Below, piece after piece: positions 6,773 through 22,712 of a stretch of 64,000 nt of DNA (its first letter is position 1; each line of letters opens with the position of its first letter). This stretch comes from Piedraia hortae CBS 480.64 (lineage: Eukaryota). Below the pieces are notes generated by a model. It did not search any database, had not been told where the DNA came from, and was given only the letters and a program-made list of their open reading frames with translations. The stretch lies in NCBI GenBank assembly GCA_010093745.1, contig MU005986.1:62001-126000 (forward strand), in the 5' to 3' direction. The position numbers and the translations under genes were made by a program.

Positions 6773-8484
6773 ATGGCAGAACGGTACATTCCCGAGCATC
6801 GGCGCACAAACTTCAAGGCAAAGAGTACCTTCAAGCCCGAGGAGCTGCGCCGCCGCCGCGAGGAGCAGCAGGTAGAGATCCGGAAGCAGAAACGTGAAGA
6901 GAACCTTGCCAAACGACGCGGTCTGGGAGCGCGCGGCGATGGAGCGCCGGGAGCGTCTCTCGGGGCTGCACCTGACAGTGACGATGAAGGCACCAACACG
7001 GAGAGTCAGGTCTGGCAGCTCTCTTCCACAATGTTTCATCCGGCTGACGTGCTCCATAGCTGAACGAAGAATTACCTCTGATGGTACAGGGCGTGTTTTC
7101 GGACAAGTTCGATGATCAGATTGCCGCCACCACCAAGTTCCGCAAGCTGCTCTCCAAGGAACGCAACCCGCCTATTGAGCGTGTCATTGAGACGGGTGTT
7201 GTCAGCCGCTTTGTCGAGTTCTTGCGCTCGCCCCACACTCTCGTGCAGTTCGAAGCCGCCTGGGCCCTCACCAACATCGCCTCAGGCTCCGCCCAGCAGA
7301 CGCAGGTGGTTATCCAGGCCGGCGCCGTGCCCATCTTCGTCGAGCTGCTCAATAGCCCGGAGCCCGACGTCAGAGAGCAGGCGGTATGGGCTTTGGGCAA
7401 CATTGCCGGCGACAGCCCGACCTGCCGAGACTTTGTCCTGTCGTGCGACGCCCTTCCGTCGTTGCTGCGTCTTTTGGGTGACTCTCGAAAGCTGTCCATG
7501 CTCAGGAACGCCACGTGGACGCTGAGCAATTTCTGCCGTGGTAAAACGCCTCAGCCGGCGTGGGAGAAGATTGCGCCGGCCCTTCCCGTGCTGGCCAAGC
7601 TCGTTTACTCGCTTGACGATGAGGTGCTGATTGACGCCTGCTGGGCCATTTCGTACTTGTCTGATGGCTCCAATGACAAGATTCAGGCTGTTATTGACGC
7701 CAACATCCCACGTCGTTTGGTTGAGCTGCTGATGCATGCTTCAACTTCGGTGCAGACGCCCGCTCTTCGCTCCGTTGGAAACATTGTCACGGGTGACGAT
7801 GTCCAGACTCAGCTGATCATTAATTGTGGCGCTCTGCCCGCTCTCCTCTCGCTGCTAAGCTCGGCCAAGGACGGTATCCGCAAAGAGGCTTGCTGGACTA
7901 TTTCCAACATCACGGCTGGCAACAGCTCCCAGATTCAGGCTGTCATTGACGCCAACATCATCCCTCCGCTCATCCATCTTCTTGGCAATGGGGACTTCAA
8001 GACGCGCAAGGAGGCCTGCTGGGCCATTTCCAATGCCACCTCTGGTGGTCTTCAGAAGCCTGAGCAGATTCGTTTCCTCGTTGAGCAGGGTGCCATCCGC
8101 CCACTCTGCGATTTGCTGGTTTGTCCCGACAACAAGATCATCCAGGTCGCCTTAGACGGGCTCGAGAACATTCTCAAGGTGGGTGAGATGGACAAGGCGG
8201 CAAGCGAAGGTAGCAATGAAGCTCCGGTCAACCGCTACGCCCTTTTCATTGAAGACGTCGGCGGAATGGAGAAGATTCACGACTGTCAAAACAACAGCAA
8301 CGAGGAGATTTACATGAAGGCCTACAACATCATCGAGAAGTTCTACTCGGACGAACCCGATGACACCGAGGTCAGCGCTCACGCTCCTCAAGGCCGAGAT
8401 GGTCGGTTCGGCTTCGGCCCTCAGCAGTCGCCTCAGCAGCAGCAGTTTGATTTTGGCAACGGCGATGACAGTATGGACATGTAA
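6773..8484 (+). CDS. SRP1: Importin alpha (karyopherin alpha); intron 7010-7059
   Basis: IBB domain '[26 protein letters not shown]' followed by ARM repeats ('[14 protein letters not shown]', '[14 protein letters not shown]', '[13 protein letters not shown]'). Confidence 0.98.
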
Positions 8485-9229: not shown

Positions 9230-11378
9230 ATGTCAAGCGTTACAGGTGCATCAGTCCGCGTAACCTTGAAGAATCCTCCCAAGTCTACAGTTACTGGAAA
9301 GGTGGTGCAAGTGAATCCTGGCAAGGCTCTGGTTCTCGAAGATGGTATGTAATTGATACACACAGCAGGGACCCTGCTAACAGACGGCAGCCTACTTCAC
9401 GTCGACCGGAAGGTGCTTTCCGACTTTTACATTGCAAGCCTCAGCCATCGCAGATCTGAGTGTTGTGCCGGCTGACAGCGAGTCTGCCACAACGCCGGCC
9501 TTGGATACGCCAGCGCCTGTGATGAACCAGCATCCTGCTCCGCAGCCGCCCATCGATCCGGCCATTGTGAGCTTCAGCAAACCGTCTGCTCCTGCCACAC
9601 TCCCGGCCCCCTTTACCGCCACTTCTGTATTGCCCTTTAGGCCTGCCCCTGCCAACCCGGTTTCAACTCCATCTGCACCTGTTCAGGCGTCAACTTCGGT
9701 GGTTACAGAGGCCCCTGTTTCTACCTCCGTGCCTGCCACGCAGACTGGGACAGCACACCGCACGGGGCGAGGTCAGAAGAAGGCAAAGGCAGCAGAAGAA
9801 GCGAATGGCGCGCCATCCGCGCATCCGGCGGTTATGAACACGGAGGTCTCAAGAAATGGCAACGACATGAACAGCGCTCTGCGCAAAGGCCAGGGCTGGA
9901 GACAGACTCCGCTGCTGCAACCGACACCGCAGACGAGAAGTGCCACAGGAAGAGGCGGAAGGCAAACGAGGAGACAACGAGAGCTTCATGGCAGCGGCTG
10001 GGCCACCGAGGACGCCACGGATGTGCAGGACATGGGCGAGTTTGACATGGAGGCCAGCAACCGGCGATTTGACAAGAAGGGCGTGTTTGACCAGATCAGA
10101 CGTGATGATACCACCACAGCCGACGAGCGGCTGATTGGGTACAATCGCGCAGCTCGTCCAGGTACATATGGCGGCAAGAACTTGCACCCCACAGAGAACG
10201 TGCTGGGCCCGTCAAGGGTTGTTAGCAGCGAAGCCGATACGGAAAGCGAAGCAAATGCGGGAGAAGCAATCGGTGCGATGAATGGTCGTTGTAGTTCACG
10301 GCAATCCGCAGTTCAGTCAGCTACGGGGAGACATCACGATGGCAAGCCTTTTCCGTCGGCGGCTTCACTTGCCGTTGATCGCAGTGGCCCTCTCGGCATC
10401 TCACGGCGGTCTTTAGCATCGCTTGCCGGCGCTGCAGCTTTGGAACGAACCGAATCACCGCATTCGGTGGCCTCAGCTGCGCGGCTACCCTCAGCTGTAG
10501 ATCCGCATCTATACGTGGTGTGCAATGGGAGTCGATGCCCAACGTTGCACCCTGGTGCCCTTGAGACGCTGGAAAGCGAGACAGTATCCCGCTATGGGCT
10601 CAGTCGCGATGCCATTGTTGAGAGCGCGGCGCGGTGCATAGCGAAGTCGACCTTTCATCTCTTTGACGTGACTTCTCCCAGACATGCGCTAACTCATGAG
10701 GCGGCCCGAGCAAATCAAGTCGTTGTTGTCTTGGCGGGCAAACAGGCCGTCAACGCAGCAGGAGCCAAAGCTGTGGCTGCCGCTCGCCATCTCGCCACTC
10801 GTGGATGCAAGGTTTTGGTGGCAGAGGCTGTCTATGAATCACAGGAGCTTCGCGGCGATGAGATGCAAAAGCAAATGGCAATTCTTAGGAAGATGCAGCA
10901 AAGCACCGGCCCCGACATAGTCAAAAGAGGCGGATGGTCGAGAGTTCTCGAACGCATCAAGAGGCTCCCGGCGCCGCCTGTTGCCATCATCGATGCGCTC
11001 TTGGGCGGATCATACACTTATGAATCGCTACAGGACTCATGCGAGGGTCAGCACGGGGCCCAGCTGCTACGCGAAGTGCGAGAGATGATTGACTGGGCAA
11101 ACCGCAGCCGCGCACCCGTGCTCTCTGTCGGGTGTCCGTCAGGCGTTTTGGGCATTGACGGATCGGCAACTCTGATTGAAGGCGGAGAGCCGCTGTCCGT
11201 GCGGCCGGATAAAGTGCTCAGCCTAGGCGTGCCCATGACGGGCATTTTACCAGCCATGAGCTCCGAAAAGTGGCAGCACCTCGTGGCCGATGTCGGCTTG
11301 AACATTGCCCTCAAACGGGAAGAAGCGGTGGCCTTTGACGGCCGATGGGTCACAGAAGTAAAGTATAGCGATGCATAG
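9230..11378 (+). CDS. EDC3: Enhancer of mRNA decapping protein 3 (Lsm-FDF-YjeF_N); intron 9345-9390
   Basis: Exon 1 encodes an Lsm-like 'MSSVTGASVRVTLKNPP..VTGKV'. Also 'GWRQTPLL', 'GWATEDATDVQDMGEFD....RFDKKGVF', and a YjeF_N region 'IIDALLG...WANRSRAPVLS..CPSG'. Confidence 0.9.
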
Positions 11379-14399: not shown

Positions 14400-17300
14400 T
14401 CCATAGTTCTAGGTAGAAAAAACTTAACATCCAACTCAATGATCGATTCAGGATGTTCCGGAATAGCCTTCATGAGTATCACTTTCGCGTAAACATCGAA
14501 TCTGCAGCCGCAGAGACTCAAAGCGCCGAGACGCTTGCTGATGGCCGACAACTCGCCAGTGAAGCGGGATATAATACCCACTTTGTGCAATCATGGTTCG
14601 AGATTGGAAGCCATCGCGAGTTCCTCCTTTTTTCTTTCACGCAGCTCAATGTCGACATCATACTAGGTCTCCCATGGTTGCGTTTGCATAACCCTCGTAT
14701 AGACTGGGCGAGTAACTCGAGAGTTGACTGGTCCAACTGCTGCCTGAACTGTCTGAAGGATGGTCAGCGTTGCAGATTTGAGGGATGGTCTGAATGTGCT
14801 CACAAACGCTACCAAGCTACGGTGGATGACTTTGCGGAAGACGAAACTGGCACACTGGATATATCGGTGTTGGACCCTGACAGCATGCTGGCGTACTACC
14901 AATCCGATGGAGTTTATGACCACTTTGTCACCTTGACAGAGTTATCAGAGAATCGGCTGGATCAGGACCCCATAGCAATTCACAAATTGACGCAGGATGA
15001 CATCGACAAATTCCTGGAAAGACAGCGGCGCAGCCCGTACACACCAGAAGAGCTGGAAAGGAAAATACCTAAAGAGCACCACGGCATACTGGATGCTATT
15101 TCCAAGCAAGCTACAAACGAATTGCCGCCATACCGGGCGACTGACACCAAATTTCTTTGGAAAGAGGGTATAGCACCACCCTGCAACAAATCGAGGCCAT
15201 TCAGCACAGAGGAAAACAAGGTCATCAAGGAGTGGTTGGACGATCAACTGGCGAAAGGTTTTATCAGAAGATCGACTTCGCCTCCCGCTGAGCTGATCCT
15301 CATTGCAAGGAAACCTGGAGGCGGAGTCAGAATCTGCCATGACTACCTAGGGCTGAATGCAGCCACGATCAAGAATCGGTTTCCCCTGCCCTTGATACAT
15401 GACACCCTGGCCAAGATTGGGAAAGCCAAATGGTTCACCAAACTGGACGTGATCGCAGCCTTCAATAGGATTCGCCTCATCGAAGGGGAGGAATGGAAGA
15501 CAGCGTTTACAACGTGATACGGCCTTTTTGAGCAGCTGTTCACCCCGTTTGGCCTGTGCAATGCCCCGTCCATCTTCCAAAACTACATCAACCGGGCACT
15601 GCATGACATATTGGACGTGCATTGCTCTGCATATCTGGACGATGTTATCATTATCTCGGATAATCTCGATGATCATTATGAGCACGTTAATCAGGTCCTG
15701 AAAAGGCTTCTTGCGGCTGGGCTACAGATCGACGTGAACAAATGCGAGTTTCACACAACGTCAATCAAATATCCTGTTCTCATCGTGAGAAGAGACGGTA
15801 TTTTCCATGGACCCCGCAAAAGTTGAAAAGAAAAATTGTCGTGGACAAGCCCTGATGACTGCCCCAAGAACAAAGTCAAGGAATTCCAACGCTTTTTGGG
15901 GTTTGCCAATTATTACCGGCGCTCTGTGGCAGGATACTCAAAAATAGCGAGGCCATTCACAGAGCCAACCAAACTACAGGTAGCATGGGATTGGACTGAG
16001 GAATGTGATCAGGCGTTCCGTACCCTCAAGCGTGCATTCAGCCAGCGCACCAGCCTTGCAGTACTTCGATCCAACACGGAAAACATTTGTCCAAACGTAC
16101 GCCTCAGATTGGGCGGCTGGTGGGGTACTGTCCCAGAATCATAACGGCACACTGCATCCGGTGGCTCTTTTCTCCTCCAAGCACTCTGCTCAAGAGTGTA
16201 ATTACGATATATACGACAAGGAGATTTTGGCAATTGTGAAAGTCCTGGAGGAGTGGCAGCCAAAACTCCAGGGTTTGGACCAGTTCGACATTGTTACCGA
16301 TCATAAAAGCTTGGAGTTTTTTATGACCACGAAGCGATTTAAACAAAGGCATGCTCAATGGGTAGAGTTCTGGTCCGACTTCAATTTTACAATTGCATAT
16401 AGACCTGAAAGGTACTATGGACAGCCGGACGCGCTCAGCCGGATGCCGAGCACAAGGCCTGTAGATGCTGACAACGTCGCCTGTGCCACCGTGAGCAACA
16501 TCTCCTGCCAGACAACAACCTGGCCCCAGGCATAAAGCCACTAGGCACAACTTCAAATGCCATGAATGTCCGCTTGGTAGACGCGCTGAGCAGCGCCGAC
16601 AAACCCACGATGAGCTGATCACAGAAGCATACGCTAAGTCCCCAATTGCAGTTTGTATGATGAAAGCTATACAGGAAGGAAAGCAAAACTGGCCGAGAAG
16701 CATCCGCAGGGACTTGTAGAAGGTGCCATTTAGGAAATGCAGGATCGTGCGTGACAAGATGTATCTCGAAGGCAAATTGTTCATTCCTAAGGACGACGAA
16801 ACAGTACTTCAAATTCTCCATCGAAACCACACGCTAGGTGGCAGGCCATCCCGGACGGACCAAAACCTTAGATCTCGTCAGACGGAATTATATTTGACCA
16901 CGAATGCACCAGGATATAGCACGCTCTGTGCGAAACTGCAACACATGTCGACGATCAAAGGCGTCAAGACGGGCTCCTTTTGGGCTCCTACAACCGCTAC
17001 CAGCACCTGTGGGTAAACGGGAGGACATTTCCATCGATTATGTCACGGATTTGCTTGAATGCAAGCGGAATAACCAAGTCTACAAGCACATCTTGGTCGT
17101 GGTAGACCGACTGACGAAAATGCGCCATTACATTCCCATGGCAAGCCTGGACGTCCCGGATTTGGTTGATGGATTTCTTTGGTGGGTCTGGTCCCTACAC
17201 GGCACCCCGCTGTCCATCGTCAGTGATCGAGGACCTCAATTTGTCTCCATTTTTTGGGGACAGGTAAGCAAGCGACTCGGTACGACACCAACGCCCTCAT

Positions 17301-18130
17301 CATCGCATCATCCTCAGACAAACGGGCAAACCGAAAACGCGAATGCCGAAAAAGAAGTCTAATGCCGATCGCATGTCAACTACCTCCAGGACGATTGGTA
17401 CAATTGGCTGCCCATGGCGGAATTTGCAGCCAACAATGCGCGCTCAGAACCCACAGGCCTGACACCTTTTTTCCGCCAGATACCTCGCTCACCCCAGAAT
17501 GGGAACGGAACCTCGAGGCCCGCAACCGCCATGTATGATGTTCAAACAGTGACAAGCCTGCTTGGCAGCGAACGAATATGCAGAGAAGCTGCAGCAGATG
17601 TTGGATTATCTTCAAGCGGCCTTGAGGGAGGCGCAAGAAACACAAGCCGACGCGGCAAACCGGAAACTTCTACAATCTAATTTCAAAGAGGGAGAAGAAA
17701 AATTGCCTGAACACCAAGTACATTAAAACGCTTCGTCAATCCAAAAACCTCGACGCCAAGAATGAAGGACCTTTCTTCATTGAAAAGGCATACGAGACGG
17801 CGTGTCGGTTGAAGGTTCCTCCAGAATATTTCCCGTCTTCCACAACTCACTGTTGACTAGGGTATTCAACGACCCTCTACCGGGTCAATATCAACTCAAC
17901 GAATCACCGCAAGAGGAAGGTGTCCTGGCGCATCACGATGACATGGACAAAGATAGAGTGGAACTATAATCCAGCCACATAATAAAGCAGAGGGGCCGGC
18001 AGAACATCAAGTACTTGGTTCAATGGAGAAATCAGGCGGTCACGTGGAAGGAAGCTGGAAATCAGAGGGGCTGTTTGGACCAGCTCGAAGACTTTTACCA
18101 GAAGAACCCCGACAAACCGAAGCCTTTCAT
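14400..18130 (+). pseudogene. Retrotransposon pol: aspartic protease, RT, RNase H, integrase, chromodomain
   Basis: 'MIDSGCSG'; 'RICHDYLGLNAATIKNRFPLPLI', 'AYLDDVII'; 'NYDIYDKEILAIV'; 'SIVSDRGPQF', 'HPQTNGQTE'; 'KYLVQW....TW'. Confidence 0.92.
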
Positions 18131-19967: not shown

Positions 19968-21617
19968 ATGCCGCTGATCAGCAAGTTTTTACCTCTCGTC
20001 CTCCTCGCCTCGAGTGGGCGCTCGATCGCTGTCCCGTCTCCCGGCGATGTACAGGTCACGAATCACGGCCAGGTGGATCAGGGAACTTGGGATAATGCGC
20101 CTCAGGGAATGATGGAGCGTCGTGAGGTGACGGTTACAAATCACGGCCCGGTCGATTCAGGAACTTGGGACGATGCCGCCAAGGACAATGAACGTCGTGA
20201 AGTGACGGTTACGAACCATGGCCAGGTGGATCAGGGAACTTGGGATAATGCGCCTCAGGGAATGATGGAGCGTCGTGAGGTGACGGTAACGAACCACGGC
20301 CCGGTCGACTCTGGAACCTGGGATGATGCCCCCGATGGGAAGGAGAAGAAAAGGGAGGTGACGGTCACGAACCATGGTCCGGTTGACTCTGGCACTTGGG
20401 ACGATGCCGCCAAGGACAATGAACGCCGTGAAGTGACGGTTACGAACCATGGCCAGGTGGATCAGGGAACTTGGGATAATGCGCCTCAGGGAATGATGGA
20501 GCGTCGTGAGGTGACAGTGACAAACCACGGCCCGGTCGACTCTGGAACTTGGGACGATGCCGCCAAGGACAATGAACGTCGTGAAGTGACGGTTACGAAC
20601 CATGGCCAGGTGGATCAGGGCACCTGGGACAATGCACCCCAGGGCGGGATGCAGAAGAGGGAGGTAACAGTTACGAATGACGGCCCTGTCGACTCTGGAA
20701 CCTGGGATGATGCTTCCGAAGGAAAGGAGCGTCGCGAGGTGACGGTCACAAACCATGGCCAGGTGGATCAGGGAACGTGGGATAACGCTCCCCAAGGGAT
20801 GAAACGTCGTGAGGTGACAGTCACAAACCACGGTCCGGTTGATTCTGGCACTTGGGACGATGCCCCCCAGGGCAAGGAGCGTCGTGAAGTGACGGTTACA
20901 AACCACGGCCAAGTGGATCAGGGAACATGGGACAATGCCCCCCAAGAAATGAAACGTCGTGAAGTTACAGTCACGAACCACGGCCCGGTCGACTCTGGAA
21001 CTTGGGATGATGCTCCCGAAGGAAAGGAGCGTCGTGAGGTGACGGTCACAAACCACGGCCAAGTTGATTCTGGAACATTTGACAATCCTTCTGGATCCAA
21101 CCAGCGTCGCGGCCTCTACTGCTTGGACACGTACTTCGCGCAGCAGATTGCAACCAACTTTGGCAATCTGATCCAACTAGTTCCTGGCTGGCAGAGCCTC
21201 GCAAAGGCAGCCCTCGCGCCGGAATTTACAGACTATAGCGAGTCCGTCAACTCTCTAATCAACAGCTGTCCGCAGGGTGCATCGGCACACACTCTGCCGC
21301 TGCTTTCGCCAACATTCTCCAGCCGGAACGAGTTCATCCAGGGTCAGGGCGAGCAGGCGCCCATCAACTTCCAGCAGCTGAACCTGTGGCACTCGTGTGA
21401 CTCGGTCACCATCCGCTGGATGACGACCAATACGGCCAACGTGACCGGAGTCAAGCCCGTCATCGGCATGATTACCATGGAAACGCGTGAGGCGCCCTAC
21501 GGCAACAAGTACCCCTTTTACATCAAGAAGATTTATTCCGAGTTCAACGCCGGCGCCTGGCTACAGAACCTTATCGCCGCCGGTTTCTGTCCCAAGTCAG
21601 CCCTTTCGAAGCTTTAG
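19968..21617 (+). CDS. Secreted Kex2-processed repeat protein (KEP): signal peptide + 14 peptide repeats + C-terminal globular (probably NTF2-like) domain
   Basis: Hydrophobic N-terminus MPLISKFLPLVLLASSG; repeats EVTVTNHG[QP]VD[QS]GTWD[ND]A....[RK]R; 168-aa non-repetitive tail after the last RR. Confidence 0.85.
   Translation: MPLISKFLPLVLLASSGRSIAVPSPGDVQVTNHGQVDQGTWDNAPQGMMERREVTVTNHGPVDSGTWDDAAKDNERREVTVTNHGQVDQGTWDNAPQGMMERREVTVTNHGPVDSGTWDDAPDGKEKKREVTVTNHGPVDSGTWDDAAKDNERREVTVTNHGQVDQGTWDNAPQGMMERREVTVTNHGPVDSGTWDDAAKDNERREVTVTNHGQVDQGTWDNAPQGGMQKREVTVTNDGPVDSGTWDDASEGKERREVTVTNHGQVDQGTWDNAPQGMKRREVTVTNHGPVDSGTWDDAPQGKERREVTVTNHGQVDQGTWDNAPQEMKRREVTVTNHGPVDSGTWDDAPEGKERREVTVTNHGQVDSGTFDNPSGSNQRRGLYCLDTYFAQQIATNFGNLIQLVPGWQSLAKAALAPEFTDYSESVNSLINSCPQGASAHTLPLLSPTFSSRNEFIQGQGEQAPINFQQLNLWHSCDSVTIRWMTTNTANVTGVKPVIGMITMETREAPYGNKYPFYIKKIYSEFNAGAWLQNLIAAGFCPKSALSKL
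20046..21110 (+). repeat. Coding tandem repeat, 14 units of 75-78 bp
   Basis: Directly visible; 1065 nt = 355 aa. Confidence 0.97.
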
Positions 21618-22064
21618 AGGATTTTTTATGTGAGATTGCGTTGGGGTAGCCGGGGGTTGGGGAGTGTTATCTTGGAATATAACTCATAGTTGAACATACC
21701 ATGATACCTATACATACCTATAAGAACATGTGAAGCGAAGAAACCACCGATCGTCTGCCCCATAAGCCGGGATACAAGGAAGTCGGGCAGCTCCTTGAAT
21801 TCCGACGCTTCCTGAGATATACTGCCCGCTTTCAACACAAGATGATGAGATGCAACAAAAAATTTGCCATTCAAATTCACACAATCCCTAAGCAGCAACC
21901 AGAACACATCATGCATTTTGATGGAGTGTCCGGTTTCAGGGTCTGTCCGACTTCCTCAACCCGTTTAAGGCCGTTTTAGCCCTCGGCCCGACCCGTTCTG
22001 ACTTCACCTCCCCCACCCACCAATCAGTCCATGTTTAATGGACTGAACTTCTCCATACCCATAA

Positions 22065-22712
22065 ATGGTCCGTAGCCTCTACAAAACCAAACCAACCTAA
22101 CATCATTCTGCATCGTTATAGCCGCCCCGAAAGTCCACGAAGAAAAGTCAAACCCGCTCCTCCCACGCATCCGAAACCTCAACACAAGAATCCGAATTCC
22201 GCGAGGCCTTCCAACTCTTCTCCACCAAACCCAAGACACGGGAAAAACGCTACCTGAACAATGACGGTGAGGCTTATCTTCCTCTCACCGACTTTCGTCG
22301 TGCGCTCTCTGCACTGAACTTCCCGCTCCCGGATACGAAATCTAGAGAGTGGAGGGAGATCTTATCCGCCGTCAACCCTGATGAGGACGAGGAAGACCAA
22401 AGAAAGGGCATAGATTTCGAGACGTTCGTAGGCGTTGCCGAGCTTTTGGCGCGAAGGCAGGATGACGGTGCAGCCGACGCGGAGAATGAGGAGATCGAGA
22501 GTGTATACCACATGTTTACGAAGAACAGGCCCGGCGCAAAGGGGATCAGTCTCCAGGACTTGAAACATGTGGTGGGATTGTTGAAGCTTGAGGACCAAGT
22601 CGATGAGGCACTCCTGAGGGATATGATTCGTGAGGCGAAGGGAGGGGAGGAGGGAGAGGTTTCGTTGGATGAGTTTGGGGATGTTGTTAGACGAGCGGGA
22701 GCGGTTGGGTGA
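22065..22712 (+). CDS. EF-hand (centrin/calmodulin-like) protein; ATG-only first exon, intron 22068-22121
   Basis: ATG|gtccgt...ctaac...tag|CCG opens a 197-codon exon: 'EFREAFQLF', 'GIDFETFV', 'IESVYHMFT...ISLQDLKHV...MIREA...VSLDEFGDVVRRAG'. Confidence 0.75.

Follow-up and report, generated by a model that had tools for sequence, protein, structure and literature searches.

A probable Kex2-processed repeat protein of Piedraia hortae with 14 dibasic-delimited units in the pro-peptide position of a secreted NTF2/SnoaL-like protein

Introduction

Two classes of Kex2 substrates have been published, repeat precursors and pro-domain proteins, and the gene described here, from Piedraia hortae CBS 480.64, has features of both. 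It lies at 19968..21617 on the forward strand of a 64,000-nucleotide stretch of contig MU005986.1 (positions 62,001 to 126,000, assembly GCA_010093745.1), which is called the window below and to which all positions refer. The repeat precursors, or Kex2-processed repeat proteins (KEPs), were defined by Le Marquer et al. 2019 (PMC6339444) and Umemura 2020 (PMC7329392). A KEP is taken here as a protein with an N-terminal signal peptide and at least 3–4 similar units split by KR, RR or KK. In the Umemura survey, 2560 stand-alone KEPs are without homologues, and 78% of KEPs have no DUF3328 gene nearby (PMC7329392). The second class follows the Kex2-processed pro-domain (K2PP) plan, as set out in PMC8528282, in which a signal peptide and a KR-ended pro-peptide precede a folded domain. 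As an example of this layout, Coprinopsis cinerea has a GH128 protein (365456) composed of a signal, a Kex2 peptide and the GH128 domain, from which the peptide has been detected by peptidomics (PMC9769878). Arrays ahead of a domain have also been described in fungi. Hum3 of Ustilago maydis is reported to carry 17 repeats and then a hydrophobin domain, with putative Kex2 motifs separating 14 of the repeats, and Rep1 to be a Kex2 substrate whose released peptides form amyloid-like fibrils (PMC4617103).

Like the KEPs, the Piedraia gene has a predicted signal peptide, many near-identical KR- or RR-delimited units, no DUF3328 gene nearby and a repeat of an orphan type; unlike KEPs with short pheromone or dikaritin cores, it has a 25-residue unit, lacks the X-Ala/X-Pro dipeptides of Ste13 processing and continues into a 168-residue globular domain. 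The likeness to Hum3, an array and then a globular domain, is architectural only: Hum3 and Rep1 belong to Basidiomycota, with amphipathic repeats of 31–55 amino acids and a hydrophobin, whereas the peptides predicted here are hydrophilic and acidic and the domain is NTF2-like. The plan of the K2PP proteins and of the Coprinopsis GH128 protein is also that of the gene's closest relatives, but those proteins have one pro-peptide, in contrast to 14 units under strong purifying selection. Orphan KEPs are common, and the gene does not represent a new kind of system. It probably encodes a KEP, and one that came about when the pro-peptide region of a secreted NTF2-like protein of the pro-domain type underwent amplification. 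On this reading it would show how a multi-copy peptide precursor can arise, by expansion of a single Kex2-cleaved pro-peptide slot to 14 selected copies, and it would link the two published classes of Kex2 substrates in one gene.

Results and discussion

The repeat array and selection on its units

The gene is a single intron-free open reading frame (ORF) of 549 amino acids, with an ATG start and no interruption (Table 1). Its first 21 residues have, by inspection, the look of a signal peptide (a basic n-region, the hydrophobic core FLPLVLLA and small residues at -3 and -1), and the N-terminus aligns with the signal-like N-terminal segments of 44 homologues. When the protein is cut after its dibasic pairs, 14 units are obtained, all with the core VTN[H/D]GxVDxGT[W/F]D, in which His is present in 13 and Trp in 13. 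Every unit ends in [KR]R at the same unit position (12 RR and two KR), and neither KR nor RR occurs inside the 168-residue tail that follows, which has its Cys residues at tail positions 4, 53, 96 and 160. The units are of two types, HGQVDQGTWDNAPQ... and HGPVDSGTWDDA..., with type A reading ...HGQVDQGTWDNAPQGMME-RR and type B ...HGPVDSGTWDDAAKDNE-RR; seven units of each type are arranged along the array in the order A B A B B A B A B A B A B A. At the nucleotide level, Tandem Repeats Finder detects a single array (20054-21076), which it describes with periods of 75 nt (13.4 copies, 70% matches, score 793), 153 nt (6.7 copies, 80% matches, score 961) and 231 nt (4.2 copies, 76% matches, score 1042). 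The pattern is far beyond chance. A preliminary description of the window, made from its letters, had named this arrangement of a signal peptide and dibasic-delimited repeats as that of a KEP, and its account of the signal-peptide-like N-terminus, the 14 units with their core and [KR]R ends and the four-Cys tail of 168 residues, with both motifs it quoted from the tail, is borne out.

The copies differ from each other mostly in ways that leave the peptide unchanged. When the 17-codon core is compared between all 14 units (91 pairs), the proportion of synonymous differences (pS) is 0.632 and that of nonsynonymous differences (pN) 0.082, and the ratio of nonsynonymous to synonymous substitution (dN/dS) is 0.063. 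Mismatches between units amount to 8%, 8% and 45.5% at the first, second and third codon positions. Since synonymous sites between copies are near saturation, the copies are old and not recently duplicated; the low dN/dS, together with the excess at third positions, argues that the peptide sequence itself is kept by selection. Units 3 and 6 are the only pair that is identical over the first 51 nt. This identity fits one later duplication of three units, which also matches the 231-nt period.

On the opposite strand, antisense to the array, lies a stop-free frame of 339 amino acids (20157-21176, -). Pfam gives it nothing beyond a weak, sub-threshold match to UCR_TM, and the frame is a shadow of the repeat, not a gene.

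The C-terminal domain

The tail is a member of a widespread secreted fungal family with an NTF2/SnoaL-like fold. The tail matched no family in the Pfam copy searched and, by sequence, no PDB chain at E <= 10. Seven proteins of 301-961 amino acids match it at E 1e-66 to 4e-38, all seven with the precomputed label PF26534. The best is a hypothetical protein of Meristemomyces frigidus (P0003; E 1.1e-66, 70% identity over 92% of the domain), a fungus whose genus belongs to Teratosphaeriaceae, Mycosphaerellales, and the next matches are from Hortaea werneckii and Vermiconidia calcicola. Representatives of the family number 239 at E <= 0.001, 104 at 1e-10 and 18 at 1e-30. Their common plan is a signal peptide, a short linker and the domain, often followed by a tail rich in serine and threonine (S/T-rich). 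In the alignment of the 44 homologues E144 is invariant, and R102, Q82 and S43 are conserved at 90% or more.

An AlphaFold2 model of the tail, built on that alignment, has a mean predicted local distance difference test score (pLDDT) of 95.9 and a predicted template modelling score (pTM) of 0.89. The Foldseek matches of this model, at E ~1e-4, comprise SnoaL-like cyclases, ketosteroid isomerases, limonene epoxide hydrolases and NTF2-like proteins; with the model of the full-length protein, Foldseek finds NTF2-like matches to the tail and nothing else. After structural re-alignment the best match is IdmH (6hnl_B; Z 13.6, root mean square deviation (rmsd) 2.5 A, 125/129 residues), many further matches lie at Z 12-13, and 913 of 1000 re-aligned chains reach Z >= 8. 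Overall the fold matches have an rmsd of 2.2-2.8 A over 110-130 aligned residues, at a sequence identity of merely 6-13%. As modelled, the domain thus has the alpha+beta cone of the NTF2-like/SnoaL-like fold, with three helices on a curved antiparallel sheet, and the NTF2-like nature that the preliminary description had suggested for the tail holds. The fold is shared with the NTF2-like/SnoaL-like superfamily (IdmH, ketosteroid isomerase, limonene epoxide hydrolase, SdnG), whereas the form seen here is secreted, has four Cys and is fungal.

Two further features of the family concern the C-terminal side of the domain. In five members (P0050, P0054, P0056, P0057 and P0112) the C-terminus ends in a KR site and a conserved tail of ~8-20 residues (e.g. 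...KRS...LRG[AP]AI); going by these sequences, Kex2-type processing may occur at the C-terminus too in this family. In the gene models of three close relatives, P0003, P0005 and P0006, the NTF2-like domain is continued by an EF-hand-like region at the C-terminus (with PF13499 listed for P0006). These joins look like gene-caller merges of two neighbouring genes, not real fusions.

Origin from a pro-peptide position

The region ahead of the domain in the relatives is where the array finds its likely source. In six of the seven closest homologues a single Kex2-type site, xEKR, stands 3-10 residues ahead of the domain's first conserved Cys. Among 46 family members with a short N-terminus, [KR]R occurs between signal peptide and domain in 15, and the density of such sites in the 46 is 1.54 per 100 amino acids in the linker vs 0.21 inside the domain. 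The xEKR of the closest homologues and the enrichment in the linker imply that the ancestral state in the clade was a Kex2-type pro-peptide ahead of the domain. The array occupies this slot, with its last RR 3 residues before the first Cys, where the closest homologues have xEKR.

The history that we propose starts from an ancestral protein in which the NTF2/SnoaL-like domain would have been preceded by a signal peptide and by a short pro-peptide with a Kex2 site at its end. In this lineage a unit of ~25 amino acids in the pro-peptide position would then have been tandemly amplified to 14 copies, largely as a 51-residue A/B double unit, with each of the 14 keeping its dibasic site. The precursor would enter the endoplasmic reticulum and lose its signal peptide; in the late Golgi, Kex2 would cut after all 14 [KR]R sites and Kex1 would trim the basic residues. 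Some 14 linear, unmodified, acidic peptides of 22-25 amino acids would be secreted, together with one mature NTF2-like protein of 168 amino acids starting GLYC. The conserved 17-residue core would be the selected, functional part of the peptides, and the domain would have a function of its own that does not depend on them, as it does in the many relatives that lack repeats. The preliminary description had offered, as an alternative, a protein co-secreted with the predicted peptides at 14:1, and the data fit it.

Predicted processing and peptides

The predicted Kex2 cuts fall after residues 52, 77, 103, 129, 154, 180, 205, 231, 256, 281, 306, 331, 356 and 381. At these sites P1 is Arg and P2 Lys or Arg, and P1' is Glu at 13 of the 14. 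Glu likewise stands at P1' of the alpha-factor site, where KR is followed by EAEA. Judged by their residues, the array sites are canonical Kex2 sites, with P1 and P2 as in the motif described in PMC8528282. The predicted peptides have 22-25 amino acids, a mass of 2384-2715 Da, an isoelectric point of ~4.1 and a net charge of -3 to -6, and come in two main isoforms. Their calculated average masses include 2457.5 (x3), 2644.8 (x2), 2714.9, 2569.7, 2439.5 and 2390.4 Da; they are hydrophilic and acidic, with a grand average of hydropathy (GRAVY) of ~ -1.

The peptides are most likely unmodified, because no tailoring genes lie nearby. A Pfam scan covered all 100 other stop-to-stop ORFs of at least 130 amino acids in the window and one ORF of 96 amino acids, and found no DUF3328/UstYa, tyrosinase, P450 or peptide-modifying family, a scan that exons of fewer than 130 amino acids could escape. 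Over this range the window agrees with the preliminary description, which had seen no DUF3328/UstYa or other tailoring gene near the array. The dikaritins (ustiloxin UstA, phomopsin, asperipin) share the KEP-like precursor plan (PMC9769878, PMC7329392), but the cores here have no Tyr, the units are much longer, and the 64-kb window has neither the DUF3328/UstYa gene that accompanies precursors of this type of RiPP (a peptide made by the ribosome and modified after translation) nor a tyrosinase or other tailoring gene. The alpha-pheromone precursors, according to PMC6339444 and PMC9769878, have cores of ~9-13 amino acids with a W/C/GQP-type motif and Ste13 X-Ala/X-Pro dipeptides after the Kex2 site, whereas the units here have 25 amino acids, start with EVTVTN and contain no XA or XP dipeptides and no Cys. 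In being unmodified, the peptides from this array would most likely resemble alpha-factor, the Rep1 peptides and the Agaricomycete KEP peptides found by peptidomics (PMC9769878). Unmodified peptides of 2.4-2.7 kDa, as predicted, are cheap to test by synthesis and mass spectrometry.

Search for relatives of the repeat

The domain is widespread and the repeat appears to be confined to this gene. Dibasic repeats are present in 0/7 of the closest named homologues of the tail, and dibasic-delimited repeats in 0/17 of the members in which the domain starts furthest from the N-terminus; the extensions in these 17 are low-complexity linkers rich in S/T or G, or probable mis-called starts. The longest of the 150 representatives listed (of 239) has 390 amino acids, too short for such an array together with the domain, so that no array is present among those listed. 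Searched with the repeat region, 5.8 billion protein clusters gave 0 matches at E <= 0.01 (proteins of 30-300 and 301-961 amino acids). Within the window, tblastn of the domain and of a two-unit piece found no second copy. The strings VTNHG, GTWDD, GTWDN and TVTNH do not occur in the text-form supplementary files of PMC6339444 and PMC7329392, and a narrow literature search for a KEX2-processed repeat together with a C-terminal domain gave no match, which does not prove absence. The preliminary description had not recognised the peptide either, and the searches run here likewise found no repeat relatives.

The ESM Atlas contains the protein letter for letter, in what may be the same genome record; a feature search of that resource with the array gave no usable match. 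In the Pfam scan of the whole protein, FPRL1_inhibitor (E 8.8e-11, 42 bits) and five weaker names came up. For FPRL1_inhibitor 0 stretches pass on their own, and these names were read as a summed repeat artefact.

A scan of metagenomes based on the repeat gave nine loci (L001-L009) that share only the GxVDxGTWD motif and were treated as not related. The nine carry GxVDxGTWD[ND] twice, ~18-20 residues apart (e.g. L001:2499-2609, L006:1405-1542), in an acidic, Gly/Ser-rich C-terminal tail, and were found with the exact 8-residue pattern. Eight of them belong to one bacterial protein type, of which they show the N-terminal body, the motif-bearing tail or both; the ORF of L005 has the tail region only, and L008 covers a short piece of that tail. 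The two loci scanned with Pfam, L001 and L006, are DUF2076. Chance or convergence suffices to explain the motif in these loci, because they are exact-pattern matches and all of one protein type.

Alternative explanations

Several points weigh against a KEP derived from a pro-peptide. The derivation of the array is argued from position only, because sequence similarity between the unit and the pro-peptides of the relatives is not significant (best P0017, p = 0.011 among 47 linkers), and the N-terminal region of the relatives also tolerates long uncleaved linkers rich in S/T or G. Acceptance of the sites by the Kex2 of this organism is assumed. The copy number of 14 rests on the assembly of the window: two public sequencing runs match the window without differences, the array is split in them into contigs of 65-417 bases, and no listed contig from either run spans it. 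Finally, AlphaFold2, with no alignment over the array, draws regular hairpins, two beta strands per unit (EVTVTNH and VDxGTW) at pLDDT ~60-83. If this model is followed, the array might fold into a module and not be a source of free peptides, and the strict A/B alternation could mirror a structural unit of 51 amino acids.

The main rival builds on this last point. It takes the array as a folded or extended beta-rich stalk, attached or, after nicking, associated, that presents the NTF2-like domain at the cell surface, with the dibasic sites incidental or partly used and with a parallel in the S/T- and G-rich extensions of the relatives. The modelled strands are in its favour, as are the N-terminal low-complexity extensions of 60-170 amino acids ahead of the domain in several relatives and the 51-residue A/B double unit (153 nt), which is the dominant period of the array. 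However, AlphaFold2 often draws regular beta structure for repeats, and the array's public model resembles in structure nothing but extended, mucin-like repeat proteins, for which no family is named. The extensions of the relatives are also without such dibasic sites, whereas in this secretory protein all 14 units retain a canonical [KR]R in an acidic, unstructured linker. In the full-length model these linkers score lower than the strands, and the domain stays at 92-98; going by the model, the dibasic sites would be accessible. Taken together, a stalk is unlikely.

A second alternative accepts the cleavage and gives the units another role. They would be multiplied pro-peptides acting in cis only, as chaperones, in solubility or in sorting and storage, and the released peptides would be by-products. 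According to PMC8528282, several effectors processed by Kex2 need their pro-domains in order to fold correctly, and the closest relatives carry just one pro-peptide where the array stands. On the other hand, one copy suffices in all relatives read, those pro-peptides are short and have no detectable similarity to the unit, and a chaperone role for one domain of 168 amino acids hardly explains 14 copies held at so low a dN/dS. This explanation is therefore given little weight. A complex prediction for the domain and a two-unit piece (scores 0.00 and 0.00) is evidence neither way.

Free peptides could also act together. The core has a strong beta-hairpin propensity (VTVTN-HG turn-VDxGTW), and this propensity, with the conserved His, Asp and Trp, suggests, as speculation, assembly or ion binding. 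Hairpin peptides of both types (seven A and seven B) might then self-assemble after Kex2 cutting into a layer of the surface or extracellular matrix, with low pH or metal ions as the trigger, sensed by the conserved His and Asp, and with the NTF2-like partner co-secreted 1:14. If true, a dothideomycete would have made a repellent-like system, in the manner of Rep1 and Hum3, independently and out of an unrelated protein's pro-peptide. We regard this as improbable.

It is very improbable that the NTF2/SnoaL-like tail crosslinks or modifies the His/Trp cores in cis, as a self-contained RiPP system: the fold does include cyclases and isomerases (IdmH, SdnG and ketosteroid isomerase are among the matches) and the conserved polar residues listed above would suit it, but the family is widespread without repeats, which argues that it did not evolve to serve these peptides, and the co-occurrence of domain and core peptides that a precursor-enzyme fusion predicts is not seen, as no repeat relative was found with or without the domain. 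Borosin and BURP fusions hold core peptides and a globular domain in one polypeptide; this domain is neither a methyltransferase nor a BURP domain but NTF2/SnoaL-like, and its family occurs without core peptides. The role of cis maturase or carrier is hence the part of the preliminary interpretation that is not supported, while its KEP plan, NTF2-like tail and lack of tailoring genes stand: homologues with no consistent link to repeats, which it had named beforehand as refuting a maturase, are what was found among the family members read.

Genomic surroundings

The neighbours of the gene are housekeeping genes and a decayed retrotransposon (Table 1). Other families in the window include MAPEG, RPC4, FtsJ, porin, 6PF2K and dihydroxyacetone kinase.

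Table 1. Features of the repeat gene and its neighbourhood, in window positions
Feature	Position	Strand	Basis or remark
Predicted signal peptide, aa 1-21, MPLISKFLPLVLLASSGRSIA	19968..20030	+	read by eye; cleavage position inferred
Linker VPSP, signal peptide to unit 1	20031..20042	+	sequence
Array, 14 units of 25-27 aa (aa 26-381), two alternating types	20043..21110	+	dibasic splitting
Last dibasic site RR, aa 380-381	21105..21110	+	3 residues ahead of the domain's first conserved Cys
NTF2/SnoaL-like secreted domain, 168 aa, 4 Cys, aa 382-549	21111..21614	+	homologues and model
Stop codon	21615..21617	+	sequence
Importin-alpha-like Arm repeats	7060-8484		Pfam
FDF/YjeF_N protein	9381-11378		Pfam
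Rrp5-like S1/HAT protein	~22.7-29.8 kb	-	Pfam
Pieces of a Ty3/gypsy-type long terminal repeat (LTR) retroelement	14417-17362, possibly from ~12.4 kb	+	different frames
Retroelement reverse transcriptase (RT)	14417-15517	+	
Retroelement RT-RNase H	15984-16535	+	
Retroelement integrase	16898-17362	+	

No public run is listed as RNA; the stretch is present in two runs, and for one of these an RNA origin is only a guess. In that run the summed contig depth is 3.6 just past 21588, where the last contig of the ORF ends (21584-21674), and ~360 over 21718-22100, towards the Rrp5-like gene. Contigs show neither transcript ends nor levels, and such uneven depth is no proof of transcription.

The retroelement is considered decayed because its pieces are interrupted by stops. 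It lies 2.6 kb upstream of the repeat gene, and at 12-18 kb G+C is lower and AT skew higher than anywhere else in this part of the window.

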